Source: Pyrinomonadaceae bacterium (GTDB taxonomy: Bacteria; Acidobacteriota; Blastocatellia; Pyrinomonadales; Pyrinomonadaceae). Taken from it: 64,000 nucleotides of DNA. The stretch covers positions 68,547 to 132,546 of the forward strand of contig CAVWZW010000003.1 of assembly GCA_963759585.1 (NCBI GenBank), in the 5' to 3' direction. The translations under genes were made by a program, and so were the position numbers. A model generated the notes under the pieces. The model did no database searches and was not told the DNA's origin. It saw nothing but the letters and a program-made list of their open reading frames with translations. Below are positions 12,301-38,949 of this stretch, piece after piece; position 1 is the first letter of the stretch; every line of letters starts with the position of its first letter.

Positions 12301-12401
12301 ACCCTCGCCAGGAGGCGCTTCACCAACGACGCAAGCTAAAGCTTGTTACGCCTGTAGTTCTTCGCTGGCCTTTTCGTTTGGCCCCGAATACTCTCTTCCA
12401 C

Positions 12402-13554: not shown

Positions 13555-14868
13555 ATGAGCAACGAAGCCGATGAATTACGAGCCCGCATTTTGGGAATGA
13601 TTGGAGAATATTACGAGGCCGCCTTTCCCAAGCGCAAATTCATTCCCGGCGAAACTCCGGTACCAATCTCAGGCAAGGTCTTTGATGCCGAAGAGATTCG
13701 GCTTTTGGTCGATGCAGGTTTGGATTTTTGGCTGACTACCGGACGCTACGCCGCGCAGTTTGAAACCGAGTTTTCGCGCTTCTTTGGGCTTCGTTACGCG
13801 ATGCTGACGAACTCTGGTTCCTCGGCAAACCTGTTGGCGCTAAGCTGTCTAACGTCCCCCTCGTTAAAAGAACGCGCTCTGCAGGCGGGCGACGAAGTTA
13901 TCACTGTCGCAGCAGGTTTCCCCACCACCATCAATCCGATAATCCAATACGGACTGGTTCCAGTACTCGTGGACGTCGAAATTCCGACTTACAACGTCGA
14001 TGTCGACCAGCTTGAAGCTGCGCTTAGTGAGCGCACCCGAGCCGTCGTGTTGGCCCACACTCTGGGCAATCCGTTTGAAGCAAAACGCGTTGCAGACTTC
14101 GTAAAGCAGCACAATCTTTGGTTGGTCGAAGATTGTTGCGATGCGGTGGGAGCGACTTACCAGGGACGACAGGTGGGAACGTTTGGTGATCTGGCAACCA
14201 CCAGTTTTTATCCGGCGCATCACGTCACCATGGGCGAAGGTGGTTGTGTGCTAACTGACAGGCCCGCGCTGAAAACCCTGGTTGAATCGTTTCGGGATTG
14301 GGGCCGCGATTGCTGGTGCGTTCCGGGTGTGGCAAACACCTGTGGCAAACGTTTCGATTGGCAGTTAGGTGATCTGCCTTACGGTTACGATCACAAGTAC
14401 ACTTATTCTCACATCGGTTACAACTTGAAACTTACCGACATGCAGGCCGCCGTCGGAGTGGCCCAGCTGCAAAAGTTGCCGAAGTTTATCGAAACGCGAC
14501 GGCGAAATTTTCAATTTCTTTACGATGGTTTGAGTGACCTGCAGGAGTTTTTCATTCTGCCGCAGGCAACGGCTGGCGGGGAACCAAGTTGGTTTGGTTT
14601 TCCATTAGCTGTGCGGCCGGAGGCGCCCTTCTCGCGCGACGAAGTGCTGCGCTGGCTCGACGAGCGAAAGATTGCCACGCGTCTGCTGTTTGGAGGCAAT
14701 CTGCTTCGGCAGCCGGCCTATCAGAACGTGCGCCATCGAAAGATTGGCGAACTTGCCAACTCGGATTTCGTGATGAACCAGGTTTTGTGGATGGGGGTGT
14801 GGCCTGGGCTGTCTCAAGAAATGTTGGGCTTTATGATCGACACCTTGCACAGGATGGTTAAGAAGTAA
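13555..14868 (+). CDS. rfbH: DegT/DnrJ/EryC1-family PMP/PLP enzyme, RfbH/DdhC-like (CDP-6-deoxy-4-keto-hexose 3-dehydrase type)
   Basis: 437 aa. The N-terminus [36 protein letters not shown] and [41 protein letters not shown] resemble RfbH/E1 dehydrases as I recall them. Confidence 0.7.
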
Positions 14869-14869
14869 G

Positions 14870-15829
14870 ATGCAGTGTCTGATCACGGGAGCTTCAGGTC
14901 ACCTTGGCTCATTTCTTACAAAGCGTTTGTTGCGAGATGGTTGGAACATCACTGCGCTGGTCAGGCCCGAGAGCGACCTTTGGCGGTTGAATGATGTACT
15001 CTCGCAAATCAACATCATTCGCGCCGACCTGGCAGACGTATCAAGCGTGGCGAGCGCGGTTGCTCAGTCGAAACCCGAGGTGGTTTTCCACCTCGCATGG
15101 CAGGGCGTGACCGGTGCATTCAAAAATGACCCTGCACAGCTTGAGGTTAATTTGACAGGCAGTCTGAAGCTTTTTGAAATTGTGCGAGCCGCTGGTTGCA
15201 AGGTCTGGCTGGGAATCGGTTCGCAAGCGGAATACGGCCGGCACGAAGAAATCTTAAACGAAGACACTCCATGCCAGCCTGAGACAGAGTATGGCGCCGC
15301 TAAACTAAGCCTGGGCCGTCAAACGAAAGAGCTGTGCAATGACGCGGGGATTCGCTATCTGTGGATGCGGCTATTGGCGACGTACGGTCCAATGGACGAT
15401 GAAAGGCATTTGATTCCGTCTGTAATTCTTCAACTGCTTCGTAGGGAACGTCCACGGCTAACCGGTGGCGAGCAACGATGGGATTACCTCTATGTCGAAG
15501 ACGCGGCAGATGCAATCTATCGTGCAGCTGTTACGAGCAACGCTCAGGGCGTTTTCAACCTTGGCTCAGGACAGAGCCACACCATCCGCAATATCCTGGA
15601 GCGCATACGAGACCTAATCGATCCGGGGTTGGAACTGGGTTTCGGTGAAGTGGCGTATCCGCCCGATCAATTGATGCGATTGGAAGCCAGCGTCGAGCGG
15701 CTTCGCCGGGCGACCGGATGGACTCCGCGAGTTGGCCTTGATGAAGGTTTAGGTCGAACGGTTGAGTGGTATCAAGGGCTAAACTCGGATGGATTAAACA
15801 GGCCCGTGGGCAAAGGGCGCGTAGTTTAG
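14870..15829 (+). CDS. NAD(P)-dependent epimerase/dehydratase-family (extended SDR) sugar nucleotide reductase/epimerase
   Basis: Rossmann motif ITGASGHLGSFL and catalytic YGAAK. Its start is 2 nt after the rfbH-like stop. Confidence 0.8.
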   Translation: MQCLITGASGHLGSFLTKRLLRDGWNITALVRPESDLWRLNDVLSQINIIRADLADVSSVASAVAQSKPEVVFHLAWQGVTGAFKNDPAQLEVNLTGSLKLFEIVRAAGCKVWLGIGSQAEYGRHEEILNEDTPCQPETEYGAAKLSLGRQTKELCNDAGIRYLWMRLLATYGPMDDERHLIPSVILQLLRRERPRLTGGEQRWDYLYVEDAADAIYRAAVTSNAQGVFNLGSGQSHTIRNILERIRDLIDPGLELGFGEVAYPPDQLMRLEASVERLRRATGWTPRVGLDEGLGRTVEWYQGLNSDGLNRPVGKGRVV

Positions 15830-15973
15830 TGTTCAACTTTTGGGTTGGGTTTTTGCTGGCCAAGACGCAAGCTGAAGCTTGAACTCTGAACTGCGCGCCC
15901 CTGGCCCACCTCTCGTTAGATTGCTCGTGACGGATACACCGTTTCCCTGATTACCGATTACTTGAATGACCTG

Positions 15974-17692
15974 ATGAAAGTTTCCGACTACATCGTGAGT
16001 TATCTCGAAAGCCGCGGGGTAACGTGTGTCTTCGAGATGTCAGGGGGCATGATTGCCCACCTGCTTAATTCGCTCCATCAGCACGCGACAATTTCCACCG
16101 TAAGCATGCGTCATGAGCAAGCGGCGGCGTTCGCAGCCGACGCGATGGGTCGAATGACGGGCATTCCAGGCGTGGCAATGGCCACGAGCGGACCGGGAGC
16201 TACAAACCTGTTAACCGGAATCGGGAGTTGTTACTTCGATTCTTCCCCGGCCGTGTTTATTACCGGTCAGGTCAACCGCAACGAGCAAAAAGGCGAGCGC
16301 GCCATACGACAGTTAGGATTTCAGGAGACTGACATCGTGCCGATGGCCGCGCCAATTACCAAAGCAGCGTGGCGAGTGACTGACCCTGAAGAGGTGCCGT
16401 CCATGCTCGAACGTGCTTTCGAACTGGCTATTGATAAACGGCCTGGCCCAGTTCTTCTCGATATTCCAATGGACGTGCAAAGGGCTGAGATTGATGTCGC
16501 AAGCACCGACGAAGAGAACAGCACCAACGCAGATGATACGGAAATCGACGGCTGGGTTTGGCGAAGTCTCTTCGATCAACTCGAGCAGGCGCAGCGCCCT
16601 TTGATTTTGGTTGGAGGTGGCGTCTCTTCCGCGCGTGCTGTTGATTTGTTTAGAAGCGTTGTTAGCACGCTCCGCGTGCCGGTCGTTAATTCACTGATGG
16701 CTGTCGATGTGCTCCCCTTTGATGACCCTTTGCGTGTGGGAATGATTGGCAGCTATGGCAACCGTTGGGCAAATTTGGCAATTGGCCGGTCTGATTTTCT
16801 GCTGGTGCTTGGTAGCCGGCTGGATGTGCGGCAGACGGGATCACAAACCGACGCCTTCAAAGGCGATCGAACAATCTTTCATGTTGACTGTGAACCCGGC
16901 GAAATTAATAACCGGGTCCGAAACTGTACCGCTATTGTTTCAGGTCTAATGGGATTCCTGTCAGCGGCCCAAGCGGAGTTCGTCAATTCGAGTTTCCCAG
17001 AACGCAGCGAATGGCTGGAAGAAATAAATGCGCTGCGACGCGCATGGCCCGACACCAGCGAGTTGTCCGAAGTGAAGGGGATCAATCCGAACGTGTTGAT
17101 GCATCAGCTTTCGGCAGTTTCAAAACACGCGGCGGCGTATGTCGTGGATGTGGGTCAACATCAGATGTGGGCCGCGCAGTCTCTGGAACTTGGGGCCGCG
17201 CAGCGGTTCCTGACTTCGGGCGGCATGGGGTCGATGGGGTTCTCGCTTCCTGCCGCTATCGGTGCGTCGTTTGCGGCACCTTCGCAACCGATTGTTTTAA
17301 TTGCCGGTGACGGCGGCTTTCAGGCCAACATTCAGGAGTTACAAACCGTCGCTCATCACGGCCTCCCATTGAAAATGGTCATACTCAATAACGAATGCCA
17401 CGGAATGGTGCGACAGTTTCAGGAAAGCTATTTCGATTCTCGATATCAATCTACCCTTGTGGGTTACAGCGCGCCAGATTTCGAGAGCGTGGCGAATGGC
17501 TATAAGATTCCGGCGCGCACAATTGAAAATGAAAAAGACACCGAAGAGGCGTTGCGCTGGCTTTGGGAAGATTCAACCAAACCTGCTTTGCTGCAGGTGA
17601 TGATCGACACCTACGCGAATGCATATCCGAAAATCGCGTTTGGTAGTCCAATGACGGAGATGGAACCCGCGTCGGACGTCAGCAAGTTGTAA
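15974..17692 (+). CDS. Thiamine-diphosphate-dependent enzyme, acetolactate-synthase large-subunit-like (YerE-like candidate)
   Basis: N-terminal ThDP pyrimidine-binding region (ATSGPGATNLLTGI). C-terminal GGMGSMGFSLPAAIGA...IAGDGGFQANIQEL...LNN motif. ATG at 15974, with an alternative TTG at 15962. Confidence 0.8.
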   Translation: MKVSDYIVSYLESRGVTCVFEMSGGMIAHLLNSLHQHATISTVSMRHEQAAAFAADAMGRMTGIPGVAMATSGPGATNLLTGIGSCYFDSSPAVFITGQVNRNEQKGERAIRQLGFQETDIVPMAAPITKAAWRVTDPEEVPSMLERAFELAIDKRPGPVLLDIPMDVQRAEIDVASTDEENSTNADDTEIDGWVWRSLFDQLEQAQRPLILVGGGVSSARAVDLFRSVVSTLRVPVVNSLMAVDVLPFDDPLRVGMIGSYGNRWANLAIGRSDFLLVLGSRLDVRQTGSQTDAFKGDRTIFHVDCEPGEINNRVRNCTAIVSGLMGFLSAAQAEFVNSSFPERSEWLEEINALRRAWPDTSELSEVKGINPNVLMHQLSAVSKHAAAYVVDVGQHQMWAAQSLELGAAQRFLTSGGMGSMGFSLPAAIGASFAAPSQPIVLIAGDGGFQANIQELQTVAHHGLPLKMVILNNECHGMVRQFQESYFDSRYQSTLVGYSAPDFESVANGYKIPARTIENEKDTEEALRWLWEDSTKPALLQVMIDTYANAYPKIAFGSPMTEMEPASDVSKL

Positions 17693-18174
17693 TGTCGGAC
17701 ATGCTTCAGGAAGCTCTGAACAAGTCCATTTTGGATTTGTACTCGAAGCGATTACGTAATTTCAGCCCAAGGGTTGCCCATGAGGCCTGCACAAGAAGTT
17801 TTCGAGCCTAGTCCGCAAAGCGGACGACTGATGATAGCCCAGCAGTTCACTGCTGGGAGTAGGACGAACGTAAGGCGCAGTCCGTGAAGCGGACGGCTGA
17901 AAATGTAGCTCATCTAGACAGTATCATTCAGCCGTCCGCTGCACGGACTACGTTTTCTCGCGCGTCGATCCCAGCAGTAAACTGCTGGGCTATTATCAGC
18001 CGTCCGCTCAACGCGGACTGGAAACCAATTTTTTGTACAAGGCGTCCTTGCGATCGCACGACAAGCTGAACAGCTTGTCGTAGGTGGTTCAGAACCCCAA
18101 TGTGCGACGCTACAAGCAGCATCATTTCTTGAGTGTTGTGAATCCAAACGGCAAGCTGAAGCATGTCGGACATT
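17691..18174. repeat. Family-B nested palindromic MITE-like element, copy 1 (core 17782-18044) bounded by 19-bp inverted repeats
   Basis: aatgtcggacatgcttcag (17691-17709) matches the reverse complement of ctgaagcatgtcggacatt (18156-18174) at 18 of 19 bases. The core consists of sub-hairpins gtccgcaaagcggac, cccagcagttcactgctggg and gtccgtgaagcggac, mirrored in the right half. Confidence 0.85.
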
Positions 18175-18200: not shown

Positions 18201-19163
18201 ATGTCCAATCCTCCGCAACTAATCACAATTGTTATTCCCGCCTTCAACGAGGAAGGAAACATTCAGAGCCTCGAGCGGGAGTTGCTGTCTGCAGTTGAAT
18301 CCCTGCCTTACGTTTTCGAGTTCATCGTCATCGACAACAGCAGTTCCGATCAGACCGGAGAGATGATCAAATCGATCTGCGCGCGGGATCCGCGTTGGAA
18401 GTATCTGAGGTTCAGTCGAAACTTCACCGTGGAGATGTCCATCACCGCTGGTTATCACTGCGCACAAGGCGTTGCCATAGTGGTCCTCTATTCTGATCTG
18501 CAGGATCCGCCCAACGTTATTCCTCGTCTGATCGAGAAGTGGAAGGAGGGTTACGACGTTGTCTACGGAGTAAGGACTGTCCGGCCCGGCGACGCACGTT
18601 GGCGTAACTTTGCGGTGAAGATCGCTTACCGTTTGATTAATTGGTTTTCGGACGTTCCGATTCCGACTGACGCGGGCGACTTTCGTTTGATCACGCGGCA
18701 GGTGCGTGATGCATTGGAAAGCTTTCCAGAGCAAAACCGTTACCTTCGAGGCTTGATTGCATGGCTCGGCTTCCGCCAGATCGGAGTTCCATACGAACGC
18801 GAGCCGCGAAGAACAGGTGAAAGCAAAGCGCCGTTTTCGCACCTGCTGTTCTTCGTTTTCAATGCTATTACCAGTTTTTCCCTGCGACCTTTAAGACTGT
18901 TTACCTTGATGGGCGCGATCATCCTGGCTGTGTCAATGATCGCTGCTGTCGTTTATGCCGTTCTCTTCTTCACTGAGGCTCCACCGCCAGGCATTACCAC
19001 GATTATTATTCTGTTACTTGCCGCGATAGGACTGAACAGTATTGGCATAGGCATACTCGGCGAATATGTGGGACGTACTTATGTGGAAGCGAAGCGACGG
19101 CCACTGTATGTAGTCCAGGAAGCGGTCAACATCGACTATGAAGCCAGTACCCTTTCCAGATGA
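18201..19163 (+). CDS. GT2 polyprenyl-phosphate glycosyltransferase (GtrB / ArnC / Ppm1 / dolichyl-phosphate-mannose-synthase-like)
   Basis: ITIVIPAFNEEGNI, VIDNSSSDQT and YSDLQDPP (DxD region), with two C-terminal TM helices (LFTLMGAIILAVSMIAAVVYAVLFF; ITTIIILLLAAIGLNSIGIGILG). Confidence 0.85.
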   Translation: MSNPPQLITIVIPAFNEEGNIQSLERELLSAVESLPYVFEFIVIDNSSSDQTGEMIKSICARDPRWKYLRFSRNFTVEMSITAGYHCAQGVAIVVLYSDLQDPPNVIPRLIEKWKEGYDVVYGVRTVRPGDARWRNFAVKIAYRLINWFSDVPIPTDAGDFRLITRQVRDALESFPEQNRYLRGLIAWLGFRQIGVPYEREPRRTGESKAPFSHLLFFVFNAITSFSLRPLRLFTLMGAIILAVSMIAAVVYAVLFFTEAPPPGITTIIILLLAAIGLNSIGIGILGEYVGRTYVEAKRRPLYVVQEAVNIDYEASTLSR

Positions 19164-19198
19164 TTTGAGACGACTTTTCAACAGGTGGTTTCCCTGGT

Positions 19199-19436
19199 TT
19201 TAGCCCGCGGTAGCGGGCGCTAGCGTAAAGCCTGGGGTGGAGCGTAGCGGAACCCCAGGAACCGTCGTCGGAAATATCTAAAGCCCGCGAAGCGGCCGAC
19301 AGTGGCATCACTACATGATTGTTACCGCACCGGCTACCGCCCACTCCGCGGGCTTTGCAAGTTCTTGGGGGATGATCCTGGGGTTCCGCTACGCTCCACC
19401 CCAGGCTTTACGCTATCGCCCGCTACCGCGGGCTAG
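19199..19436. repeat. Family-C palindromic element, copy 1
   Basis: ctagcccgcggtagcgggcgctagcgtaaagcctggggtggagcgtagcggaaccccagga (19199-19260) is the near-perfect reverse complement of 19376-19436. A related copy lies at 30348-30642. Confidence 0.9.
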
Positions 19437-19512
19437 ATCAAGCCAGCCAAACACAACAAAGGCCAGTTTCGTTTGAAACTGGCCTTCGCTCATTTGCGCT
19501 TGTCGTGCGACT

Positions 19513-20367
19513 TTAGAAACGGTTGCGATATTCCGCGGAGTTCATGAAGCCGTTAATCATCGTGCGGTAGTCACCGGTCTGGTTCATGGTATTGATCCAG
19601 TCGAGATAGAGGATGTCCGGATCGCGACGGAGATAGCCGTGATACTGCATCACTACGAAAGCCTCGTTGTAATACTTGTTGTAAACCTCTGACGCCTCGC
19701 TGATCGCTCTCAACACCTGCGCCCGAGTCTTGGTGGCCGCGTTCAGATCATTAATCAACTGCTGCGAGTTGCCTATGGTAACGCCCGCGGTGCTTACCAG
19801 CGTATTCACGAAGTCAGCGTTGCTTAAAGCGTCATACTTCGTCTTGAATTCCTGCCGCGCCATGAAGTCGTTAATGAAGGCCACTTTGCTGGCTTCTAGC
19901 TGCTGGTCGGTCTGGAATCCACTAACGCGACGCGCGTCGGGAATGAACTCGGCATACAGGGGCACGCGCTTAAAGCTCACCGAATAGAAGCGGTAAACGA
20001 AGTAGCGTCGTACCTGAAACTCGTCGGAGCGAAAGAAAGCGGAGCTGACTTCAATTCGATCGCAAGGCGGTGGGGTGGTAGTGCCGCAACCGTTCATGAC
20101 ATTCATCCAGCCCTGGAAACCACCGGGCTCCGGCATACGCGCCAGGAAGTCGATGTAGTGCTGTTGAATGAAAAAATCGTTGTCATCAATGGTGATTGGC
20201 GTGTTCGTGCCTGGACGCAAACGCAGCGGCTTCACCTTAACGTTGCCGTAATAAAGCTCCGAGGGAAGGGTCGGGTCTTCGGTGACGATTCTGAGTGTGG
20301 GGCTCTGCCCAAGCGCGCTAACAGCCGTGAGCGCGATTACAAAAAGGGTTATGGCTAACTTCATCAT
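19513..20367 (-). CDS. Small secreted protein made almost entirely of the triple DUF4214-like module
   Basis: Signal peptide MMKLAITLFVIALTAVSALGQ with AGGAG 5 nt upstream of the ATG at 20367. DFFIQQHYIDFLARMPEPGGFQGWMNVMNGCGTTTPPPCDRIEVSSAFFRSDEF ... MNGFMNSAEYRNRF is colinear with the C-termini of the 0-12 kb genes. Confidence 0.85.
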   Translation of the reverse strand: MMKLAITLFVIALTAVSALGQSPTLRIVTEDPTLPSELYYGNVKVKPLRLRPGTNTPITIDDNDFFIQQHYIDFLARMPEPGGFQGWMNVMNGCGTTTPPPCDRIEVSSAFFRSDEFQVRRYFVYRFYSVSFKRVPLYAEFIPDARRVSGFQTDQQLEASKVAFINDFMARQEFKTKYDALSNADFVNTLVSTAGVTIGNSQQLINDLNAATKTRAQVLRAISEASEVYNKYYNEAFVVMQYHGYLRRDPDILYLDWINTMNQTGDYRTMINGFMNSAEYRNRF

Positions 20368-20589
20368 AATGCTCCTATCCTCGCCTGATGTTCGACGATT
20401 CAGTTTGTCGAGATCTTTCATGAGGAGGGGCGTCCAATATCGTCATCGATGCTCTGGCAGCGTTGAGACAGTCAGTAGTTTAGGTCGGCCCGTGTAGTAC
20501 TGTCAAACCGAAATATTTAGATGCGTGAACGGGGAAAAAAGACTGAAAATTAATGGGTGATTAAAGGGGAAACGCCACAGATTCAGGGA

Positions 20590-21762
20590 CTACCCTGCCC
20601 AGTATGCCTGGGCGTAAAATACTGTGTGCATAAACAGCAAAGCAGCAAAGAGACCGATTACCGCTAAGCCGAGCCACATCCTCCTCTTGAAAATGTCGCC
20701 TAAAACGATAAATACCGGAAATAGCAGCATCAAAAATCTACTAAATGATCCAAACCCTCTATTTCCAGCAGCCAAAAAGTATGGCATGAGCAAACCGCCG
20801 GCTACGTAAAGCGTGTAAGAAACCTGCAGACGTTTCCTGAAGCAAACCGCGAGGGCGATGAACATCAGAAAGAGCCAGGGGGCGAGCGTCTCAGGAATAG
20901 GGCCGTCGCGCCAGATGTCAGCGAGATGTAGAAAAGGCTGCAAGGTGATCAGCCTCAAGATTTCGCCCCAGCTGCCTTCGCCATGCCAGGCACGCTTGCT
21001 GGTTATTACGGATAGGGGCCGGTTGAAGTTAGCCCACAAGTAAATCATGTACAGCCACAATCCTGAGGTGGCAAGCAACAAGTTGTAAACGATTGCGATT
21101 CCCAGGCGCTTCTTGTTTGGCCCTAGCTCGCGCCATAGTTCCCAGAGTAATGGTGGTATCAGCGACAGACACGTGACACGGGTGCCCACAGCCAGGCCTA
21201 TGCAAACCGACGCAAGGATGAAGTGCTTTCTCTTCAGTAGTAGAAATGTGACTGTGATCAGCACCAGGGCTAACGACTCGGTATAGCCTGCGGTAAGAAA
21301 CAGGGACGAAGGAAAGAAGCAAAGACCAGCCACCGCGAAGAGCGCGACCTCGTCTCCGTAGTCTTCACGGATCAACTTGACCAGCAAGGGGACGGCGGTT
21401 AGTAGCAGCGCATTGGAGACAACTAATAGTGCGATCTCAGGCGACAGACGGAAGACAACCGAAACGACTTTGCAAACCAGTGGGTAGAGAGGACTGAAAG
21501 TGATCGACTGCTGCGCCAGCTCGTCGCCGGTGTGCGTGTAACCATCGCGAACGATCTGAAGATACCAGCCTGCGTCCCAGCGCAGCAGATAGCGATACCA
21601 GGGCACATTGGTCTCACCGGCGGCGTGAATGCTTGGAGTGACAAATCTGGCAGAAAAGAAGAGGGCAAGGATTACGACTAGTCTCGAGGCGAGCAAGATC
21701 AGCAGCGCCTTTGCGTAGAGCGTAATGTTCGCGCGGCGATGATTTGAGGCTTCGTGGTCCAT
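20590..21762 (-). CDS. Polytopic membrane protein, PIG-V/mannosyltransferase-like (GT-C fold candidate)
   Basis: About 10 predicted TM segments. The motif YRYLLRWDAGWYLQIVRDGY is characteristic of PIG-V-type mannosyltransferase-like proteins. Confidence 0.65.
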   Translation of the reverse strand: MDHEASNHRRANITLYAKALLILLASRLVVILALFFSARFVTPSIHAAGETNVPWYRYLLRWDAGWYLQIVRDGYTHTGDELAQQSITFSPLYPLVCKVVSVVFRLSPEIALLVVSNALLLTAVPLLVKLIREDYGDEVALFAVAGLCFFPSSLFLTAGYTESLALVLITVTFLLLKRKHFILASVCIGLAVGTRVTCLSLIPPLLWELWRELGPNKKRLGIAIVYNLLLATSGLWLYMIYLWANFNRPLSVITSKRAWHGEGSWGEILRLITLQPFLHLADIWRDGPIPETLAPWLFLMFIALAVCFRKRLQVSYTLYVAGGLLMPYFLAAGNRGFGSFSRFLMLLFPVFIVLGDIFKRRMWLGLAVIGLFAALLFMHTVFYAQAYWAG

Positions 21763-21851
21763 CGAAAGCGAATCTCAGTTCTTTGTAACGCAAAACTGTT
21801 AGGTTGCGAGCCGAACGCTACAAACATCTATCTTCTTACAAGCTAACTTCT

Positions 21852-22115
21852 GAGGCCTTGTACAAACAGTGTTCGATTCTCAGTCCGCGATTAGCGGACG
21901 GATGATAGTAGCCCAGCAGTTCACTGCTGGGATTAGTGCGAAGATGAGTCACCAGTCCGTGAAACGGACGGCTGAAAAGTATTGATAACTTGGCTTATGT
22001 TCAGCCGTCTGCTTCACGGACTGCGTTTTCTTGCTCGTTGGATCCCGGCAATGAATTGCTGGGCTACTCTCATTCGTCCGCTTAGCGCGGACTGAAAACC
22101 ACTTTTTGCCCAAAG
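21852..22115. repeat. Family-B nested palindromic element, copy 2
   Basis: gaggccttgtacaaacagtgttcgattctcagtccgcgattagcggacgg...cccagcagttcactgctggg... aligns with the copy-1 core (17782-18044) along its whole length. Confidence 0.85.
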
Positions 22116-22154
22116 CTGGCTTCTACTGAATCGCTCGCAAACTAACAGTTTGCG

Positions 22155-24980
22155 TTACGATGCCCCGAAAAACTTGCGACCGAATATGACCACCCCGACG
22201 AGCGCAAAAAGTGAGAACCCGCTGATCGCAGCTCCGTAATAAAACATCTTGGGTTTGAACTCGAACCGAACAGTATGTTTGCCGGCAGGAACTTGCACGC
22301 CCCGCATCGCATAGTTCGCGCGAAATAATTCGACTGCTGCGTCGTCAACTTTAACCTGCCAGCCCGGGTAGTAAACGTCGCTGGTGACGAGGAATGCAGG
22401 AGCAGCAGACATTGTTTCAACTTCCATCGCAGTCTCAGAAAGGTTTACGACTCGAGCTGATGCGCCAGGATCCCCGGCGAATGAAGCCAAAGGCTTTTCC
22501 ACCAGTGCTGCACGCGCTGGATCAAACTCACGTCCGTCGGGTAAACGCGACGACTTGATGGTGCGCAGTACATCTTGCGGTGCGAGGTTAATCGCTTCGG
22601 ATACAAACCACGCGCGAGGTAGTGCGCGCATGTTTTCGTAGATGCGAGCTCCCCCGGAGTCCTCAACGAAGCGCCATTGGCTTCCCAGAAATGACGGTGG
22701 ACTGATCGACTCCGAGCTGTTTGCGAGTTCATCGATCAAGTTCAGCTTGTCCAGGATCATTGCACCTTCGCGTCCTGACCATTGCAGCTCTACCTTGCTA
22801 ATCGCTCTCCCGTCTTTCAGTTTCAAGTTCGCGAGATAGAAATGACCTTCGCAGGACTCTTCGTACATTTTGGCTGGATAGCTCTTGAAGAGTTCAGCAC
22901 GTTGGTGCTGCATGTTTGGCTTGATGGTTGGACAGTCGTAGGACCATTCGGAAGAATCACGTCCTGCCAAAAAGCTTTGCGTCTCAGTGTTTCCGTTAAC
23001 ATCCGTCAACAACACTCGCGCGACTTCCTCACCCTGCTTCAGCGATACCGAACAGGCCAGGCGGCTGACTATACCCACACTAGTAGCCCGAAACGGCGCA
23101 GGCAAAGTGAACTGAACCGCGTCGCGTTTCGGCTGATTACATCCCGAACCGAGCCAGATATCCATGTTCTCCTCAAGCCACAATTTGCCGTGCGCGTCGC
23201 GGACAGTTCCGGCCTTCGGAAGTACAACATAGCGCACTGAAGTTAAGTTGAGGCTTTGGTCTTCGGGACTTCGCCAGGTGGGAGCAATGCTTCCGTCAGG
23301 AAGAATTGATAACAGGTACATCACTCGGGATGGAAGCAGTGGGCCATAGCCAGTGGCGTTCGGAACGTTCCATATCCTGGATAAATTGGGAACCAACTCC
23401 TCAGGTGTTCCCAGTGTGCCGCGGATCGAAACCATTCGTTGATTGGTTCCGGTAAGCATGGTCCGCAATCGCGCGGCCGAAGGCGGTTCATTCAACACTT
23501 GCTTTGGCGGTGCGGCAAAATGCCAATTGAAGAACCAGCCAAAGCTCGCCAAATCAAGAAGCAGCACGATCAAAACCAAAGTATGTCGGAGAGCAGACCC
23601 AGGATTTCGATGCCACACGAACAGCGCGATGCCGCCGAGAAAAAATACTATCAGCGGGACGCAAACTGCCGGATTCTGCCAGGGCAGTAGATCGAGGTCG
23701 GTTATCCCTCGTGCGATTGCGAATCGCTGAATCTTGTCTGAGTTAAGAATGAAAACGGCCACCGCCATCACTAATGCCGCAACGGCCACAGTAATGGATA
23801 TCGCGCGCCTGCTTACCTTTCCTTGAGCGAGAGCGTTTGCCCCCAGCCCGGAAAGAACGCTGACTGCGAATGACACTTCAATGAAGTGACGTGCCGGAGC
23901 TCGAAATTGGCCCAGCACCGGAAGCTGGTACACCAAAAACGCGAGCGGCGTACGCTCGCCCAGGGCTAGCAGGAAAGCAAGTAGCCCAACGACAACCCAG
24001 AATATGGTCACGCCTTTCCGCCGGCTGTAGAAGGACCCGATCGCCGCGAGCATCAACGGCAGCAGGCCGACGTACCCCGTCATCTCTATCAGGTTCCACT
24101 CGCCAAAATACTGGGGGTTGCCATAACGAGGTAGGCCGCCAAATACGGCAGGGAAAAGAAGCATTGGAAGATGCTTTGAGGGAAAGGAGTAGGTAACGAA
24201 TTCCCAGTAAGTGAAACCCGTTCGCAAACTGAGGCCCGCAAGCTCTTTGGTCGGAAGAATTTGAAGTGCGGCGAGACCCAGCCCCAAAACGAAAAGAACC
24301 GAAGCGAGCGGGTAAAATCGCAGGCGGCCGATAGGAGCGCTCCACCCTAAGAAAAGGGCGTAGGCGCCGGCGGCGATCAGTCCGTAGACAACGATCTGTA
24401 AATGTCCCGCCAGCATGCAGCATGCAATAGCCAAACACCCGGCCACCAACCAGAGCCTGCTGAATTCTCGCCGCAACATTTCGAGCGACCAAACGATTAA
24501 CGGCAACCAGACTGCGGAATGAATCATGGCAGTATGGCCCATGTGGGCGATCATGAAACCACACATGCCGTACGTGATCCCGGCAACGAGGCTGGCAAAT
24601 CTCGATTGTGTAATCGCGTAGACGTAGCCATAAGTGAAGCAGCTCGCCATCACGTAAGCCGACACAACGAAAATGTTCCAACCGCCGGGAATGAAAGAAA
24701 AGAAAAGAGCAGGTGGATACCAGGCCATGACCTGTGGATCGGCAACCATTGGGAAACCGTTTGCCAGCAGGTTGTCCCAAAGCACTTTGCTCGACTGGAA
24801 GAAGGCCAGGTGATACACGACGCCGTCGCCGAGGCCGCCCGCAGCCGGTGCTAACAGATGACCGGTAAAGAGAACCGGTGAGAAGAAAAGAGTAAACAGG
24901 AGGGAGAAAAAAAGGACGACAAAGACAGCGTGGCGAACTGGGGTTTTAAGTAGAAGGTTTAAAGACACCATAGTGAGCAC
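22155..24980 (-). CDS. YfhO-family polytopic membrane protein (GT-C type extracytoplasmic glycosyltransferase candidate)
   Basis: 941 aa with many N-terminal TM helices. FFSPVLFTGHLL start region. C-terminal DVYYPGWQVKVDDAAVELFRANYAMRGVQVPAGKHTVRFEFKP plus a final TM, as in YfhO proteins. Confidence 0.75.
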   Translation of the reverse strand: MLTMVSLNLLLKTPVRHAVFVVLFFSLLFTLFFSPVLFTGHLLAPAAGGLGDGVVYHLAFFQSSKVLWDNLLANGFPMVADPQVMAWYPPALFFSFIPGGWNIFVVSAYVMASCFTYGYVYAITQSRFASLVAGITYGMCGFMIAHMGHTAMIHSAVWLPLIVWSLEMLRREFSRLWLVAGCLAIACCMLAGHLQIVVYGLIAAGAYALFLGWSAPIGRLRFYPLASVLFVLGLGLAALQILPTKELAGLSLRTGFTYWEFVTYSFPSKHLPMLLFPAVFGGLPRYGNPQYFGEWNLIEMTGYVGLLPLMLAAIGSFYSRRKGVTIFWVVVGLLAFLLALGERTPLAFLVYQLPVLGQFRAPARHFIEVSFAVSVLSGLGANALAQGKVSRRAISITVAVAALVMAVAVFILNSDKIQRFAIARGITDLDLLPWQNPAVCVPLIVFFLGGIALFVWHRNPGSALRHTLVLIVLLLDLASFGWFFNWHFAAPPKQVLNEPPSAARLRTMLTGTNQRMVSIRGTLGTPEELVPNLSRIWNVPNATGYGPLLPSRVMYLLSILPDGSIAPTWRSPEDQSLNLTSVRYVVLPKAGTVRDAHGKLWLEENMDIWLGSGCNQPKRDAVQFTLPAPFRATSVGIVSRLACSVSLKQGEEVARVLLTDVNGNTETQSFLAGRDSSEWSYDCPTIKPNMQHQRAELFKSYPAKMYEESCEGHFYLANLKLKDGRAISKVELQWSGREGAMILDKLNLIDELANSSESISPPSFLGSQWRFVEDSGGARIYENMRALPRAWFVSEAINLAPQDVLRTIKSSRLPDGREFDPARAALVEKPLASFAGDPGASARVVNLSETAMEVETMSAAPAFLVTSDVYYPGWQVKVDDAAVELFRANYAMRGVQVPAGKHTVRFEFKPKMFYYGAAISGFSLFALVGVVIFGRKFFGAS

Positions 24981-25072
24981 AAACTTCGCACCAACCTGAT
25001 TTCAGCCCTTCAGGCTGAAATCCACTTCTAACTTTCGCGCAACGCTCCGGCGCTGTTGTTTAGAATCGCCAT

Positions 25073-26890
25073 TCATTGCACCACCGTCACCCAAACCTGT
25101 GGGGTGCGCTCGCCAAATGCTGCTACGCCATCCTGGACCATGCCCCAATGAAACGAGTACCGACCCGGCTCGGCAGGCGCTGTAATTTTAAATTCGAATT
25201 TTACGATCGAACTCGATTCAACCGTCGATGGCAACTCGACGCGCTCGAGGCCCCAGTCGCGATTTCCGCTTAGATAAGCCAAACGGTAAAGCTCCCCGGT
25301 GGTCCACCTCTTAAGTCCAGTATTCTTCACCGTGACATTAACGCTGTATGTCTCACCGGCCTTCATTGAGTCCGGCACCAGCTGCTCCACAAAGGCGGCG
25401 TCATTTAGCGAATCGGCCTTGACCGCCGGCTCCGATCCGCGCTGCAAAACAACCCAACCATCCTCCTCGAATATCTTTTGGTATCCCCTGACTTGCCGGG
25501 CTGTGAGATACATCTTCAAGTCCTCGACGGAGGTCATTGGATACGGATTAATTTTGTCACTCGCAATGATGAAGTCAGGATCGGGAAAGTTCGCAGTTGG
25601 ATGAAGCACGTAGATCATTTGCCGGTGCGATAGATGAGGTGTGATTGGTCCCTGTGCAGCGACCGAGGCATCAGGCGGAATCATCGCGAGCGCGTTGCGT
25701 CCAACCTGGTCGCTACTGCTCAGTCTCCAATACCCGGCAGACTTTAATTGCCAGAGTGGAAATTCAGGCAGCAAGCGCACGTTTAGCAAAAGTATAAAGC
25801 AGCTTACGGCAATGAGCAGGTATCGAGATTTCACTTTCAACTGACCCGTGATTCTGGCTAGACCGTCAGCAGAAGACATGACCAGCACGGGCACAAGCAC
25901 CGCCGTGTAGTGAAAGTCCGGGGTCCAAAAGTTAACTTTTTCGGAAAGAAACCGTTCGGCGAATAATGGAATAGCCAGGATGAACAGTGGTGAAAAGAAC
26001 GACAAAAATAGAAACGGATGAAAGATATACCAGTAAGTATGCAGCTTCGTCGGCGGGGTAAACAGCGTCCGGATCACCAGAAGCGGCTCCGACAACATCT
26101 TTACGAGCGCGCTCAACGGTCCCGATCCGAATTGTCTATAACTCCAATGATGGTAGTAGACGCCGGGCGGGGTATTTTGCTTGATGAGCGGATGGAGGAA
26201 GTAAGGGATGAAGATTTTGGTCACCGTCAGAAACCATATCGCGCCGGCGCCCATGCTGATCAGTCCTGGCTTGAATCGTTTCGTGACCAGCAGGTAAACC
26301 CCGAAGAAGAAAACGAGCAGGGACAGGTTCTCCTTCGTCAGCAGCAACAAGATTAGGCAAAAGAAGTACGGCCGCCATCGCTCTTCGTCGATAAAGTAGA
26401 TTGCCAGCGCGGTTAAAGGAACGGCAAACGCTATCTCGTGAAAATCAAACTCGACGGCTTTCTGGATGCCCCAGTAGATCGAATACGACAAACAAAACAA
26501 GTAAGCCGCAACTTTTCCCAAACGCTTTTCCGTGAAAAGAAATATGGGAACCATCGCGACTGCGAACAGCAGCGCTTGCGCGATCAGCAACGCTTCGATT
26601 CGATTCGTAAACCAATAGATTGGGGCCAGCAGAATTATGATTGGATGGAAGTGGTCGCCGAGCAGATTGTCTTGTGAGAGATGAAGGCGAACTGTGTTAT
26701 AGGGCGGCCCAAAGCGGCTGTATTGCCAGATAGCTTGATCGAAGATCCCCAGGTCGTAGGCGGTTGACGCGAAGTGCCAATGGCGAAGAATTGACAGTGA
26801 GGAGTAAACGATGGTGAGAGCGAGTACGAAGAGCCAAAGCCACTTCCGTCGATTTAATGCCGCGGTTACCTGAGCAAGGTTATCTAACAT
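25073..26890 (-). CDS. DUF2079-family polytopic membrane protein with C-terminal NBR1/Ig-like soluble domain
   Basis: SILRHWHFASTAYDLGIFDQAIWQYSRFG...LLGDHFHPIIILLAP is typical of DUF2079. The C-terminal domain is AGETYSVNVTVKNTGLKRW...GRYSFHWGMVQDG. I prefer the start at ATG 26890, because the longer ORF to 27034 runs into a REP copy. Confidence 0.7.
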   Translation of the reverse strand: MLDNLAQVTAALNRRKWLWLFVLALTIVYSSLSILRHWHFASTAYDLGIFDQAIWQYSRFGPPYNTVRLHLSQDNLLGDHFHPIIILLAPIYWFTNRIEALLIAQALLFAVAMVPIFLFTEKRLGKVAAYLFCLSYSIYWGIQKAVEFDFHEIAFAVPLTALAIYFIDEERWRPYFFCLILLLLTKENLSLLVFFFGVYLLVTKRFKPGLISMGAGAIWFLTVTKIFIPYFLHPLIKQNTPPGVYYHHWSYRQFGSGPLSALVKMLSEPLLVIRTLFTPPTKLHTYWYIFHPFLFLSFFSPLFILAIPLFAERFLSEKVNFWTPDFHYTAVLVPVLVMSSADGLARITGQLKVKSRYLLIAVSCFILLLNVRLLPEFPLWQLKSAGYWRLSSSDQVGRNALAMIPPDASVAAQGPITPHLSHRQMIYVLHPTANFPDPDFIIASDKINPYPMTSVEDLKMYLTARQVRGYQKIFEEDGWVVLQRGSEPAVKADSLNDAAFVEQLVPDSMKAGETYSVNVTVKNTGLKRWTTGELYRLAYLSGNRDWGLERVELPSTVESSSIVKFEFKITAPAEPGRYSFHWGMVQDGVAAFGERTPQVWVTVVQ

Positions 26891-27083: not shown

Positions 27084-27446
27084 TTACCTGCCGCCATTCG
27101 GCTTCTGATGAAAGCTACGATACAACCACTCCGCCCTTACCGCCGGTTGGTGCTTCGCGGCTTTTTTAACAGTACTTTGACAGAAAATGTATTGACCGAG
27201 ATCCGGCTGCCGATGTCTTACCAGTGGGGCCACGGTCTCGATTGATATATTCGAGCCTTGCAGACCGGCGTTAACGTCGGCCGTGAATAGACTTTCGACA
27301 TTGAAACCGTTTGCGGAAAGCAGGCTAGCCAGATCCTGCGGTGTGTATTCGCGGTTATGCCGCCCGTATGGTCCATAACCGGAATAGGGATCGTATATAT
27401 TCTCGCCGGCAATCACCTTGCGCACGTTATCGAGGCGACGCAACAT
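27084..27446 (-). CDS. C-terminal piece of a class I SAM methyltransferase domain (continuation of the upstream ORF in another frame)
   Basis: MLRRLDNVRKVIAGENIYDPYSGYGPYGRHNREYTPQDLASLL continues the methyltransferase fold that ends abruptly at ...LKPGGVMVLTTPNVASPR* in ORF 27427-29241. The two ORFs overlap by 20 nt. Confidence 0.6.
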   Translation of the reverse strand: MLRRLDNVRKVIAGENIYDPYSGYGPYGRHNREYTPQDLASLLSANGFNVESLFTADVNAGLQGSNISIETVAPLVRHRQPDLGQYIFCQSTVKKAAKHQPAVRAEWLYRSFHQKPNGGR

Positions 27447-29241
27447 TGGGCGTGGTGAGCACCATCACGCCGCCGGGTTTCAATACTCGCCTGATTTCCA
27501 ATAGGGCGTGCACGGGATCTGACAAAAGGTGCTCGATGATTTCGCAAAACAGGACGACGTCAAATGAGTTGTCAGCGTAAGGAAAGACATCCTGCTCGAC
27601 GTTAAACTGCTTGTAGGGGAAGTTGACTACCTCGCCTGTCTGTTTGATGAATACTTTTTGACTTCCTTCTGTTCCCGACCTGTCGAAGAAGTTTGCCAGC
27701 TCCAATCTGGCATCGCGGAATTTCGATAGCATCACCGTCATGAAGTACGGATTCGCTCCAAGCTCGAGCACAGAAAGTCCAGTTCTTTCCGGCACCAGAC
27801 CCAGCGTGTAAACAAAACGTTTGAAATCTGATTCGACGTAACCCTTCATTTCATCGGGCGGCGCGTCTTCAACCAGAACAGAACTAACCAGGGCACGCAG
27901 CTCGTCCTCCGGCCACCCTTCAGGTAAGGGAAGCGGCGGAGCGTTTGGCCGGTCTGATTCTTTGAGGGCTTTTCGTTTTGGAGCCGGTTCCGAAAGCTGC
28001 GGCGATTTTGGAAATGTGACGCCGGGAATTGAGACACGCGGCTCAGGACAAGACTCGACCGCGTTGATTAATGATTGACGCACGCGTTCGGGAGTGAATC
28101 TGGAAACTACGTATCGCCTGCCTGTTTCTCCCATACGCTGCCGGGCGTCTTCGTCGCCGAGCATTTCGCTTAACCGGGCGGCAAAGGTTTCGTAATCTTG
28201 ATAGATCTTTCCGCCGCCGCTCAACTTGATATGGTCTGTCAAAACGTTTGAGCGGTTGCTTGCCAAAACAGGAGTGTGCTGGGCCATCGCCTCCAACGTA
28301 ACGATGCTGAAACTTTCTTTTCCTGATGGCATCACGTACAACTGTGCTCCGGCCATCAGGCTAAACTTCTCCTCAGCCGGAACGAATCCCACAAACTCGA
28401 GGTCCGGATGGTCAGGTACCGGGATATCCGCCGAGCCGGTAAGTACCAAACGCAACGGCGATGGATTCTCTTTTTTGAACTGCATGAAGTAGTCAAACAA
28501 ATCCAGACAGCCCTTATTCGGATCAATGCGGCCGCAATAGAGAACGTAGGGAAAGTCTTTTATTGAAGGCTCCCGCGGTGCGGCGTCAATTGCCATGGCC
28601 ACCACTTGACCGGGAAGTTTTCCCCAGAGATCGTTGCCCAGCCGCTGCTCCGCCTCGGTTAACCAAATCATCGAGTGTGCACGATGGGCAGCATGCTTGT
28701 AGACCGAAAGATAGGCAGGCTCTTCATCGTGGAGCGTCGGGGCAAACAGTGCGCGCCCGCGCGGAACTTCGTTGATACCGAAGTAAGCGGTCGGGTAGAG
28801 ATAGGTAACGAAAATGATCGTGCGATACTGCGACCAGTTGTCACGCAAAAACATTACGAGCGACCGTGAATATGGGCCAATCCTGCGCACAAACTCTTCC
28901 TGAAGTGCGATGCTCCAGGGAATGTGTTTCATCCCGCCATCGGGGCCATTGTGACTGCCGGCGCCCAATCGATCGAAGTCGTGAATCATGCGCGTGAACA
29001 GTTCCGTCCGGTATGGACTGTAGCCGATGTCAACTTTGAAACGACGAACGTTAACGCCGTCGCGCACCTCCAGACCTTCCGGCAAAGCATTTGCCCAGTA
29101 AGCTGCATCAACTGCCGTGGTAGTTAAAACGTCAACTTCGTATGAATCCTTAAGCAGGTTTGCATACTGCCAGGCGAGCGCCTCTGAGCCGCCGACAACG
29201 GTTTCATGGCATCGCTGAACAACGATGGCTACTTTCTTCAT
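27427..29241 (-). CDS. GT4 glycosyltransferase fused to a class I SAM methyltransferase domain (apparently frameshifted near its 3' end)
   Basis: N-terminal MKKVAIVVQRCHETVVGGSEALA and ESFSIVTLEAMAQHTPVLAS (GT4). C-terminal VLELGANPYF...FDVVLFCEIIEHL...LKPGGVMVLTTPN (methyltransferase motifs I and post-I to III). Confidence 0.75.
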   Translation of the reverse strand: MKKVAIVVQRCHETVVGGSEALAWQYANLLKDSYEVDVLTTTAVDAAYWANALPEGLEVRDGVNVRRFKVDIGYSPYRTELFTRMIHDFDRLGAGSHNGPDGGMKHIPWSIALQEEFVRRIGPYSRSLVMFLRDNWSQYRTIIFVTYLYPTAYFGINEVPRGRALFAPTLHDEEPAYLSVYKHAAHRAHSMIWLTEAEQRLGNDLWGKLPGQVVAMAIDAAPREPSIKDFPYVLYCGRIDPNKGCLDLFDYFMQFKKENPSPLRLVLTGSADIPVPDHPDLEFVGFVPAEEKFSLMAGAQLYVMPSGKESFSIVTLEAMAQHTPVLASNRSNVLTDHIKLSGGGKIYQDYETFAARLSEMLGDEDARQRMGETGRRYVVSRFTPERVRQSLINAVESCPEPRVSIPGVTFPKSPQLSEPAPKRKALKESDRPNAPPLPLPEGWPEDELRALVSSVLVEDAPPDEMKGYVESDFKRFVYTLGLVPERTGLSVLELGANPYFMTVMLSKFRDARLELANFFDRSGTEGSQKVFIKQTGEVVNFPYKQFNVEQDVFPYADNSFDVVLFCEIIEHLLSDPVHALLEIRRVLKPGGVMVLTTPNVASPR

Positions 29242-30326
29242 ATCAGCCCGTTCATCGCGTCAAGGAATTTTGACCTAATCCTCTGGTTGGTAAAATTCTG
29301 TGCATACCTTTGCCATCCCATCTCGCCCAGCGATTCTCTAACGCCGTTGCCTTTTACGATCGAGTTAATCGACTCAGCCAGCAGGTAAGGGTTCTTCTCA
29401 TTCCAAAGCAGGCCCGCGTCTTTGACGGTGCCGGGAATTGCCGACGACCCATACCCCACGATTGGAATCTTCATTGACATGGCTTCGACCAGCGGCACAC
29501 AGAAGCCTTCGTGTTCACTGGTAATCATAAAAACATGGGCCAGGGAGTAATAAGACTTAAGCGCTTCATCAGAAACTTCTCCAGTGAAAACGACGGCATG
29601 GTCTACCTTCAAGTGCTCAGACACTTTACGAAGCCACTTGTTGTAAGTATTGAGACGCATCTCTTCCTTGCCCACAATGAATAACCGGCTATCTGGATTG
29701 TAGTCGTGATGATAGGCGGCGAACGCTTCGATCAAAGCCGAGTGGTTCTTATTCGGCGCCAGCCGGCCAACCATCAGGATATTTGTTTTGCCGTCGGAGT
29801 AAGCATTCAGCACTTTCCGATCGGCTTCGATCGCCTTAAGCCTGGCAGTGTGATGGAAAGGCGGGACCACGAAACTCCTGGACTTGGGCGTTCCCCATTG
29901 CAGCAACTCGCTTTCGTTGTACGCAGAAGCAGACATGTAAACGTCACAACCGACGCCGGCTATCAATGGCAGTTGGTCGCGACCTTCAAGGCACATCATG
30001 GCAAAGTCTTTACTGAAGTCCATGAAAAATTCCGGTGGCGTGACGTTGTGATATTTGACGGCCGTGCGCCACTTCCTCTCGCTCAGAAGTTTTAATCCGA
30101 AGTTCCACCCTCTCGAATAGTGATAAATCAAAAGATCGTTTGGACTTTTCAGGAAGCGCTCGAGTTTGGGCGCCGGCGAGACCTTTGGCTTATCGAAGGT
30201 CCAGCCCTCCGCAAAGATTCGCGTTTCGTGGCCGAGCTCGCTCAGAACGTCATACATTCCCAGCACGTCGTTGCTGACGGCGTCGCCGGTTGTGATGCTC
30301 GGTGTTAAGAGTGCGACTCTGGTCAT
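29238..30326 (-). CDS. Glycosyltransferase family 1 (GT4-type)
   Basis: MTRVALLTPSITTGDAVSNDVLGMYDVL..., EGFCVPLVEAMSMKIPIVGYGSSA. It is a paralogue of 30543-31742. Its stop overlaps the start of the next gene (ATGA). Confidence 0.85.
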   Translation of the reverse strand: MTRVALLTPSITTGDAVSNDVLGMYDVLSELGHETRIFAEGWTFDKPKVSPAPKLERFLKSPNDLLIYHYSRGWNFGLKLLSERKWRTAVKYHNVTPPEFFMDFSKDFAMMCLEGRDQLPLIAGVGCDVYMSASAYNESELLQWGTPKSRSFVVPPFHHTARLKAIEADRKVLNAYSDGKTNILMVGRLAPNKNHSALIEAFAAYHHDYNPDSRLFIVGKEEMRLNTYNKWLRKVSEHLKVDHAVVFTGEVSDEALKSYYSLAHVFMITSEHEGFCVPLVEAMSMKIPIVGYGSSAIPGTVKDAGLLWNEKNPYLLAESINSIVKGNGVRESLGEMGWQRYAQNFTNQRIRSKFLDAMNGLI

Positions 30327-38807: not shown

Positions 38808-38949
38808 GCCTGCCAGCCTGAGCTGCACTACCTGGGTATCCCCAGAACCGCCAAAAAGTGATACTATCCCGGGCACTTCAATGGGCGTCCGGAAGCCCTC
38901 CTCGTTCGCGTTTGTACACAGTTAAGTTTTGAAGTTGCGAGCCAGTCCC

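Follow-up and report, generated by a model that had tools for sequence, protein, structure and literature searches.

The region described here lies in a 64-kb window of DNA from an uncultured soil acidobacterium; the window is the whole stretch that was analysed, and all coordinates are window positions. In a genome scan with the alignment of one of its products, a YfhO-like protein, the nearest relatives were Acidobacteriota and metagenome-assembled genomes (MAGs) of Pyrinomonadaceae. The region contains a plus-strand gene for a GtrB/ArnC-type polyprenyl-phosphate glycosyltransferase of family GT2 (18201–19163) and, on the minus strand, genes for three membrane proteins: a small PIG-V/GT87-like protein of 390 residues (20590–21762), a large YfhO-like protein of 941 residues (22155–24980) and a DUF2079 protein with a C-terminal Ig domain of the NBR1-FW type (25073–26890). 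All four open reading frames (ORFs) were found exactly where an earlier note on this DNA had placed them. Chance is not an issue, because the frames are long, their homologues number in the hundreds and the gene order is conserved. The earlier note, which had described an extracytoplasmic glycosylation module made of these four genes, omitted a gene for a secreted DUF4214 protein between the GT2 and the 390-residue protein (19513–20421, minus strand), as well as the larger glycan locus. The four genes are probably the periplasmic stage of this locus, which spans about 29 kb (12273–41176) and includes a Wzm/Wzt ABC transporter, and do not constitute a self-contained module.

The GT2 protein (320 residues) has an N-terminal catalytic domain of the GT-A type (PF00535, residues 9–168, E 3.9e-25), and two transmembrane (TM) helices are located at the C-terminus (233–251 and 263–281). 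Its original classification as a GtrB/Ppm-like enzyme is borne out by full-length matches to solved structures of GtrB and ArnC that include both TM helices. The match to Synechocystis GtrB (5EKP) extends over residues 3–313 with an E-value of 5.6e-71, the DLQDPP motif (D99, D102) lines up with that of GtrB, and ArnC is matched with an E-value of 5e-46 (9HWJ). By homology, the protein is a genuine GtrB/ArnC-type polyprenyl-phosphate glycosyltransferase, and it is predicted to load a single sugar from a nucleotide sugar onto polyprenyl phosphate.

The YfhO label of the 941-residue protein, whose gene is called at 938 residues in databases, holds in part. Family PF09586 is matched with 64.6 bits against a gathering score of 28.5, but the match is confined to the last 75 residues or so (residues 846–920, model positions 760–835) and does not reach the membrane domain. 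The models for PgfM1 and PgfM2 likewise match only the C-terminus. The architecture is that of YfhO proteins, with an N-terminal polytopic domain, a large outer domain rich in β-strands and a C-terminal TM helix (916–934); hydrophobic segments number 11+1. In a Foldseek search of the PDB with the AlphaFold2 model (pLDDT 84.9, pTM 0.82), the top 24 matches were all GT-C enzymes with a probability of 1.00, AftD being the best (1.6e-10), followed by EmbA, EmbB, EmbC, ArnT, STT3, PglB and AftA. Judged by this model, the protein can be assigned a GT-C fold with confidence.

Many Pyrinomonadaceae encode longer YfhO-like proteins of 1220–1460 residues. A fusion with another enzyme was considered for these and rejected, since they carry YfhO signatures only; probably, they arise from duplication of the outer (periplasmic) domain. 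In addition, tandem partial paralogues occur which match only residues 525–930, approximately; examples of the longer proteins and of the paralogues are P0197, P0200, P0225 and others, and loci L036, L038 and L043–L045.

The DUF2079 protein matches PF09852 over model positions 1–458 of 459 (260.6 bits, E 4e-77) and N_BRCA1_IG at its C-terminus (E 1.6e-7), in agreement with the earlier description of a DUF2079 protein with an Ig/NBR1-like domain. The ORF may start as far upstream as 27034, and at least 6 hydrophobic segments are present. With the AlphaFold2 model (pLDDT 88.2, pTM 0.83), Foldseek retrieved ALG12 (9.5e-7), STT3, ArnT (TM-score 0.52), DPY19, AglB, PglB and ALG9 from the PDB; these GT-C matches have a probability of 1.00 and TM-scores of about 0.4–0.5. 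The C-terminal domain (residues 545–653, approximately, when the ORF is taken as 653 residues long) resembles in the model the FW domain of NBR1 (4OLE) at 26–28% identity. As for the YfhO-like protein, the predicted structure allows a confident assignment to the GT-C fold. A literature search found no paper on the DUF2079 family, for which the fold-level evidence provided by the model as a GT-C is a new element.

For the 390-residue protein, which contains 10 hydrophobic segments, the connection to GT-C is indirect and leads through related sequences. PF04188 (PIG-V, Mannosyl_trans2) gave no match with the window protein. Among 40 relatives, 27 match PF04188 (best E 2.1e-10), 24 match PMT_2, 21 ALG10 and 13 GT87, and the family comprises Acidobacteriota proteins annotated as ‘Gpi18-like mannosyltransferase’. 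The term PIG-V-like is therefore fair at the level of the family. A profile of 40 family sequences found no GT-C chain in the PDB, and a hidden Markov model of the family did not reach genuine GT87, PMT_2 and GT22 genes from related contigs.

All three are polytopic, in keeping with the 7–13 membrane helices typical of GT-C enzymes, and for the YfhO-like and the DUF2079 protein the helix lists of the AlphaFold2 models agree with hydropathy. Moreover, all three proteins carry conserved aspartates in the first extracytoplasmic loop, which follows TM1, as expected from the earlier note: D52, D69 and D81 are invariant in the YfhO-like alignment, D46, D51 and D79 are conserved in at least 90% of the DUF2079 sequences, and D63 is invariant within the RWDAGWY motif of the 390-residue family. 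The sidedness of the loops was derived from the positions of TM1 and from positive-inside charges. Direct sequence searches of the PDB with the three membrane proteins found no GT-C chains. Of the proposed three GT-C proteins, two are supported by AlphaFold2 and Foldseek, and the third is linked by the sequences of its relatives only. The suggestion that three GT-C families in one locus are unusual is weakened by locus L086, in which four GT-C genes lie within 12 kb; in mycobacteria, one donor supplies several GT-Cs (PMC11127046).

The genome scan with the YfhO-like alignment yielded 79 distinct loci, against which all locus proteins were compared by tblastn. They belong to Pyrinomonadaceae, other Acidobacteriota, cyanobacteria, Syntrophaceae and other delta-proteobacteria, Peptococcaceae and Desulfotomaculum. 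Counts refer to the 44 loci that have 6 kb or more of flanking sequence on each side. In 32 of these, a full-length GtrB-like GT2 is encoded no more than 10 kb from the YfhO-like gene, and in 20 the distance is 2 kb or less. Wzt is found in 32/44, any GT4 in 39/44 and a secreted DUF4214 protein in 28/44, but a DUF2079 gene in only six and a PIG-V-like gene in four. In cyanobacteria, Syntrophaceae, Peptococcaceae and Terriglobia, the YfhO-like gene directly adjoins the gene for the GtrB-like GT2. One cyanobacterium in which the pair occurs is Fischerella PCC 73103 (L032).

In two loci (L001 and L003), the gene order of the window is retained over 20 kb, from Wzt through the GT4 gene that heads a deoxysugar operon. 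Otherwise collinear loci differ in their combination of GT-C genes: both the PIG-V-like and the DUF2079 gene are present in the window, L001 and L013, the PIG-V-like gene alone in L003/L005, L006 and L029, the DUF2079 gene alone in L008, L009, L010, L011, L015 and L072, and neither in L014. In the closest of the relatives examined (L003/L005, 72% identity), the DUF2079 gene is missing; in others, it is the PIG-V-like gene that is missing, or both are. At other sites, homologues of the DUF2079 and PIG-V-like proteins are encoded with no GT2 nearby, in some cases next to other GT-Cs. L013 encodes three GT-Cs and no full-length GtrB-like GT2. The full set of four genes occurs only in the window and in L001. 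Co-conservation, which had been set beforehand as a test by which the four-gene module could be refuted, accordingly speaks against it. Because otherwise collinear loci differ in their accessory GT-Cs, the conserved core is the pair of YfhO-like GT-C and GtrB-like GT2 within Wzm/Wzt and GT4 loci, and the PIG-V-like and DUF2079 genes behave as exchangeable accessories. In place of the deoxysugar/GT2 operon, L013 harbors a different cassette (L013:11407–18228) with a split transketolase, a short GT2 of 232 residues without TM helices, DUF4915 and a sulfotransferase.

The variable presence of the accessory genes bears on a possible chain-building role. One polyprenyl-phosphate donor might supply the GT-Cs, which would act sequentially or processively and assemble a second glycan domain on an exported primer, as happens with arabinan or lipomannan in mycobacteria. 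Such a role would agree with the structural similarity of the YfhO-like protein to the arabinofuranosyltransferase AftD and then EmbA, EmbB and EmbC, with the ratio of one GT2 to three GT-Cs, which is reminiscent of decaprenyl-phospho-arabinose in mycobacteria (PMC11127046), and with the relationship of the 390-residue family to GT87 and PIG-V mannosyltransferases. However, the Foldseek ranking among GT-C enzymes is uninformative on processivity, and the dispensability of the accessory GT-Cs in near-identical loci is more easily reconciled with optional decoration than with an assembly line in which every step is required. Chain building is therefore considered unlikely.

The genes surrounding the GT-C cluster provide the setting of an exported polysaccharide. 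On the minus strand, upstream of the GT-C genes, lie wzt (34481–35776), which encodes an ATPase (ABC_tran) with a C-terminal glycan-binding domain (Wzt_C, E 2.7e-36), a gene for DUF4214, S-adenosylmethionine-dependent methyltransferase and FkbM methyltransferase domains (32063–34450), which is a candidate chain terminator or capping enzyme, two GT4 genes (30543–31742, Pfam E 7.5e-25; 29238–30326, Pfam E 5.1e-30) and a GT4-methyltransferase fusion (27084–29241). The ABC-2 permease Wzm is encoded on the plus strand (40352–41176; ABC2_membrane, E 1.6e-19; weak KpsM and Wzm matches). In total, the glycan locus holds four GT4 enzymes, methyltransferases, Wzm, Wzt with Wzt_C and the deoxysugar operon. 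At the level of domains, the parts of a Wzm/Wzt pathway are present, namely Wzm, Wzt with a domain for binding the terminal cap, cytoplasmic glycosyltransferases and a terminator methyltransferase.

The GT4-methyltransferase fusion is split by a +1 frameshift near 27440 into ORFs of 604 and 120 residues, compared to 721–724 residues in relatives. At the junction (near 27427–27446), one extra base is found, and the TPNVGRLDNV of relatives is replaced in the window by TPNVASPR and a stop codon; the split represents either a real pseudogene or an error of MAG assembly. Situated between wzt and wzm are an 835-residue PD40 protein with the Solibacter-specific C-terminal domain TIGR03437 (36158–38665) and a matrixin-like peptidase (38929–40305).

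Six DUF4214 proteins are encoded in or beside the locus (44–529, 561–4424, 4744–8640, 9598–12072, 19513–20421 and 32063–34450), three of which are large and secreted with Calx-beta, beta-propeller or PA domains. The protein adjoining the GT-C genes (19513–20421, 302 residues) has a signal peptide and three stretches of DUF4214 repeats (Pfam E 1.5e-17), and is strongly conserved. Some DUF2079 paralogues carry DUF4214 at the C-terminal position of the NBR1-like domain (P0278–P0283; L084). Since a DUF4214 protein was reported in a 2026 preprint to bind the O-antigen of lipopolysaccharide (bioRxiv 10.64898/2026.09.02.748959), the arrangement suggests that the large DUF4214 surface proteins may be tethered to the glycan that the locus builds. 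By analogy with the carbohydrate-binding modules of GT136 ORF12, EmbC and AftD, which bind the acceptor (PMC11127046), both the β-rich outer domain of the YfhO-like enzyme and the C-terminal NBR1-like domain of the DUF2079 protein plausibly bind the acceptor glycan.

The same proteins could instead be the targets of the system. Protein O-glycosylation, as carried out by PgfS/PgfM1/PgfM2 of S. mutans or by actinobacterial Ppm1/Pmt, would make use of substrates such as the DUF4214 and Calx-beta proteins, of which the six DUF4214 proteins around the locus and the conservation of the secreted one beside the YfhO-like gene are suggestive. The best NCBIfam match of the GT2 is PgfS (2.2e-71), the C-terminus of the YfhO-like protein matches PgfM1 and PgfM2, and relatives of the 390-residue protein match PMT_2 and PIG-V. 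Yet none of the Pgf matches comes near its equivalog cutoff, and the match to solved GtrB is just as good. The 302-residue DUF4214 protein was rejected as a glycosylation target, as it has no conserved Ser/Thr-rich tract and its Cys-Cys loop is variable. Furthermore, the YfhO-like gene accompanies Wzt, Wzm and GT4 genes in phyla without DUF4214 neighbours, and the reported function of DUF4214 is that of an O-antigen-binding domain and not of a glycosylation target. Protein targets hence appear improbable. ArnT-like modification of lipid A was also considered and was rejected, since the DegT-family gene of the locus is RfbH and the context is that of polymer synthesis.

Taken together, we consider it rather probable that the region encodes the periplasmic, post-export stage of a Wzm/Wzt-dependent surface-polysaccharide pathway in an acidobacterium close to Pyrinomonadaceae. 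Cytoplasmic GT4 enzymes would assemble the polymer on a lipid carrier, methyltransferases would cap it, and Wzt would recognise the cap, with export of the polymer by Wzm/Wzt. In parallel, the GtrB/ArnC-type GT2 would load one sugar onto polyprenyl phosphate, an unlinked flippase would move the lipid-sugar to the periplasmic face, and the GT-C enzymes would use it to glycosylate the exported chain. The YfhO-like enzyme could serve as the conserved partner of the GT2, and the PIG-V-like and DUF2079 proteins might be optional, strain-variable transferases that add residues or linkages. Donor, acceptor, sugar identity and order of steps are what we infer; the family and fold assignments, the gene order and the co-occurrence are observations. 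The periplasmic decoration envisaged in the earlier note thereby fits a polysaccharide exported by Wzm/Wzt. The underlying logic of multi-component transmembrane glycosylation is established (PMC8035078, PMC5836110, PMC7389260, PMC11127046), and a precedent exists for GT-Cs that act with a lipid-linked donor on ABC-exported O-antigens and carry an acceptor-binding carbohydrate-binding module (PMC11127046).

Several points weigh against post-export decoration. Every functional claim is derived from homology and from the gene neighbourhood in genomes of uncultured organisms. The 390-residue protein itself stays below the Pfam thresholds, its GT87 match (E 0.0023) being under the gathering score. 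Pairwise profile-profile runs with hhalign among the three membrane protein families gave no significant similarity, therefore sequence data cannot relate these families to one another. No flippase of the GtrA, SMR or MATE type was detected in the 64-kb window by Pfam searches of the annotated ORFs and by hydropathy; the hydropathy scan, which covered every ORF in the window from 60 residues upwards, revealed no small multi-TM ORF. Likewise, an initiating phosphoglycosyltransferase and a final ligase (Wzy_C/WaaL, LCP or other) were not found in the window. In E. coli, wecA and waaL are encoded away from the locus, and the initiating and ligase genes may likewise be located elsewhere here. Finally, a sub-clade of Pyrinomonadaceae has the YfhO-like gene and no GT2 within 10 kb (L017, L021–L026, L033, L070).

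The last two points would also be in line with a YfhO-like protein that is not the partner of the GT2 but attaches the completed polymer, after export, to the final acceptor, in the manner of a ligase or oligosaccharyltransferase. This role would account for the absence of a WaaL gene from the window and for the conservation of the YfhO-like protein, which exceeds that of the other membrane proteins of the locus; two of its structural matches, PglB and STT3, are oligosaccharyltransferases. It is at odds with the proximity of a GtrB-like GT2, which extends to distant phyla, and with the characterised YfhO-family enzymes, which take C55-P-linked monosaccharide donors (PMC5836110, PMC8035078). 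A ligase role thus seems very unlikely. Each of the three alternatives, i.e. protein O-glycosylation, chain building and ligation, fits the context less well than decoration after export.

A hint to the donor sugar comes from the plus-strand operon which ends with the GT2 gene. It starts with a GT4 gene (12273–13550; Glycos_transf_1, E 3.8e-37), followed by RfbH (13555–14868), a CDP-6-deoxy-D-xylo-4-hexulose-3-dehydrase that acts as E1 of 3,6-dideoxyhexose synthesis and scores 718 bits against an equivalog cutoff of 423 (NF011936, E 3.7e-216). The next gene encodes a sugar dehydratase, epimerase or reductase of the short-chain dehydrogenase/reductase (SDR) type (14870–15829; Pfam Epimerase, E 4e-46) with weak matches to sugar 4,6-dehydratases, a possible YerF-like reductase. 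It precedes an acetolactate-synthase-like enzyme dependent on thiamine diphosphate (ThDP; 15962–17692; TPP_enzyme N, M and C domains), which is under every acetolactate synthase equivalog cutoff and is a candidate YerE-like sugar-branching enzyme. In the yersiniose pathway, YerE puts a two-carbon branch on CDP-4-keto-3,6-dideoxyglucose, which is then reduced by YerF (PMC9306805). The combination of RfbH, ThDP enzyme and reductase recalls such a pathway for a branched 3,6-dideoxyhexose and provides a lead by analogy; rfbF, rfbG and rfbI are absent from the 64-kb window. Among related loci, the high-identity form of the GT2 (77–87%) is found only alongside the RfbH, SDR and ThDP genes, and the neighbouring GT4 occurs also without them, which mildly favours the GT2 as user of the deoxysugar. 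It is possible, although on the whole doubtful, that the GT2 donor is a CDP-derived 3,6-dideoxy sugar, perhaps with a yersiniose-like two-carbon branch, which is made by the RfbH, SDR and ThDP enzymes and attached by the periplasmic GT-Cs, and that at the same time the DUF4214 and NBR1-like domains bind the glycan. If true, GtrB-type systems would thereby gain a class of donor, the CDP-derived 3,6-dideoxy sugars, that they are not known to use.

Two copies of a palindromic element of about 230 nucleotides, which resembles a miniature inverted-repeat transposable element, occur as direct repeats at a distance of 4074 bp (17809–18033 and 21877–22107). The segment between them comprises exactly the GT2, DUF4214 and PIG-V-like genes. 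The window has no further site of this kind, and the number expected by chance is zero. As the corresponding gaps are far shorter in L001 and L003, the elements look recently inserted. Between the converging GT2 and DUF4214 genes lie a long inverted repeat (19194–19442) with 67-nucleotide arms that are 94% complementary and 115 nucleotides apart, and, separate from it, a short terminator-like hairpin (around 19461–19490). Outside of the glycan locus, a small protein has a post-PEP-CTERM-1 domain (9044–9574), and a deoxyhypusine-synthase-like gene adjoins an arginine decarboxylase gene (52590–55642); the latter pair probably serves homospermidine/polyamine synthesis and is unrelated to the glycan genes.

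The mechanism itself is well known, and current understanding is not overturned; what is new is the use of unstudied enzyme families. A testable function and a GT-C fold can be offered for DUF2079 and for a large YfhO-like subfamily. This subfamily is widespread in Acidobacteriota, cyanobacteria, Deltaproteobacteria and Firmicutes and tied to ABC-transporter glycan loci, which is a new element, as is the apparent variation of surface glycans among the abundant soil Pyrinomonadaceae through exchange of GT-C cassettes, comparable to enterobacterial serotype conversion.

Among the closest known systems are the GtrA/GtrB/Gtr systems for O-antigen glucosylation of Shigella and Salmonella and the Klebsiella galactose system for ABC-exported O-antigens (PMC11127046). 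These share the GtrB-type GT2 as donor enzyme, the transfer by a periplasmic GT-C and the exchange of GT-Cs between strains on a common backbone. In contrast, the window has no linked GtrA, and its three GT-Cs belong to other families (YfhO-like, PIG-V-like and DUF2079). Unlike the phage cassettes of Gtr systems, the genes are chromosomal and reside inside the polymer locus. In the three-component pentofuranose system of Citrobacter youngae O1/O2, an O-polysaccharide of the ABC route is also modified after export, and the GT-C, the GT136 founder ORF12, binds the backbone through an additional periplasmic carbohydrate-binding module (PMC11127046), to which the outer domains described here may be a counterpart. 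C. youngae employs a phosphoribosyl transferase as donor synthase and a flippase of the MATE type, whereas the synthase found here is of the GtrB/ArnC type and the window showed no flippase.

Teichoic-acid glycosylation by CsbB/YfhO/GtcA of Bacillus subtilis and GtlA/GtlB of Listeria likewise pairs a GT2 with a YfhO-family GT-C (PMC5836110, PMC7389260, PMC8035078), which consists of an N-terminal polytopic domain, a large outer domain and a C-terminal TM helix; there, too, the flippase is often unlinked. The present system differs in the diderm host, in the presumed acceptor, an ABC-exported polysaccharide, and in the restriction of the YfhO match to the C-terminus. A shared feature with ArnC/ArnT, which transfer aminoarabinose to lipid A, is the full-length homology of the GT2 to ArnC, its position in an operon with sugar-nucleotide tailoring genes and the presence of ArnT among the top matches of both models. 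Here the DegT-family neighbour is RfbH, a 3-dehydrase, and not ArnB; ArnA, ArnD, ArnE and ArnF are missing, and the context is a polymer. Finally, in the synthesis of mycobacterial arabinogalactan and lipoarabinomannan, galactan is exported by Wzm/Wzt and several GT-Cs (AftA–D, EmbA–C) then act with one lipid-linked donor; AftD and the Emb proteins are the best structural matches of the YfhO-like protein. The mycobacterial donor derives from phosphoribosyl pyrophosphate and not from a GtrB-type GT2, and the mycobacterial GT-Cs are essential, whereas two of the three encoded in the window are dispensable.

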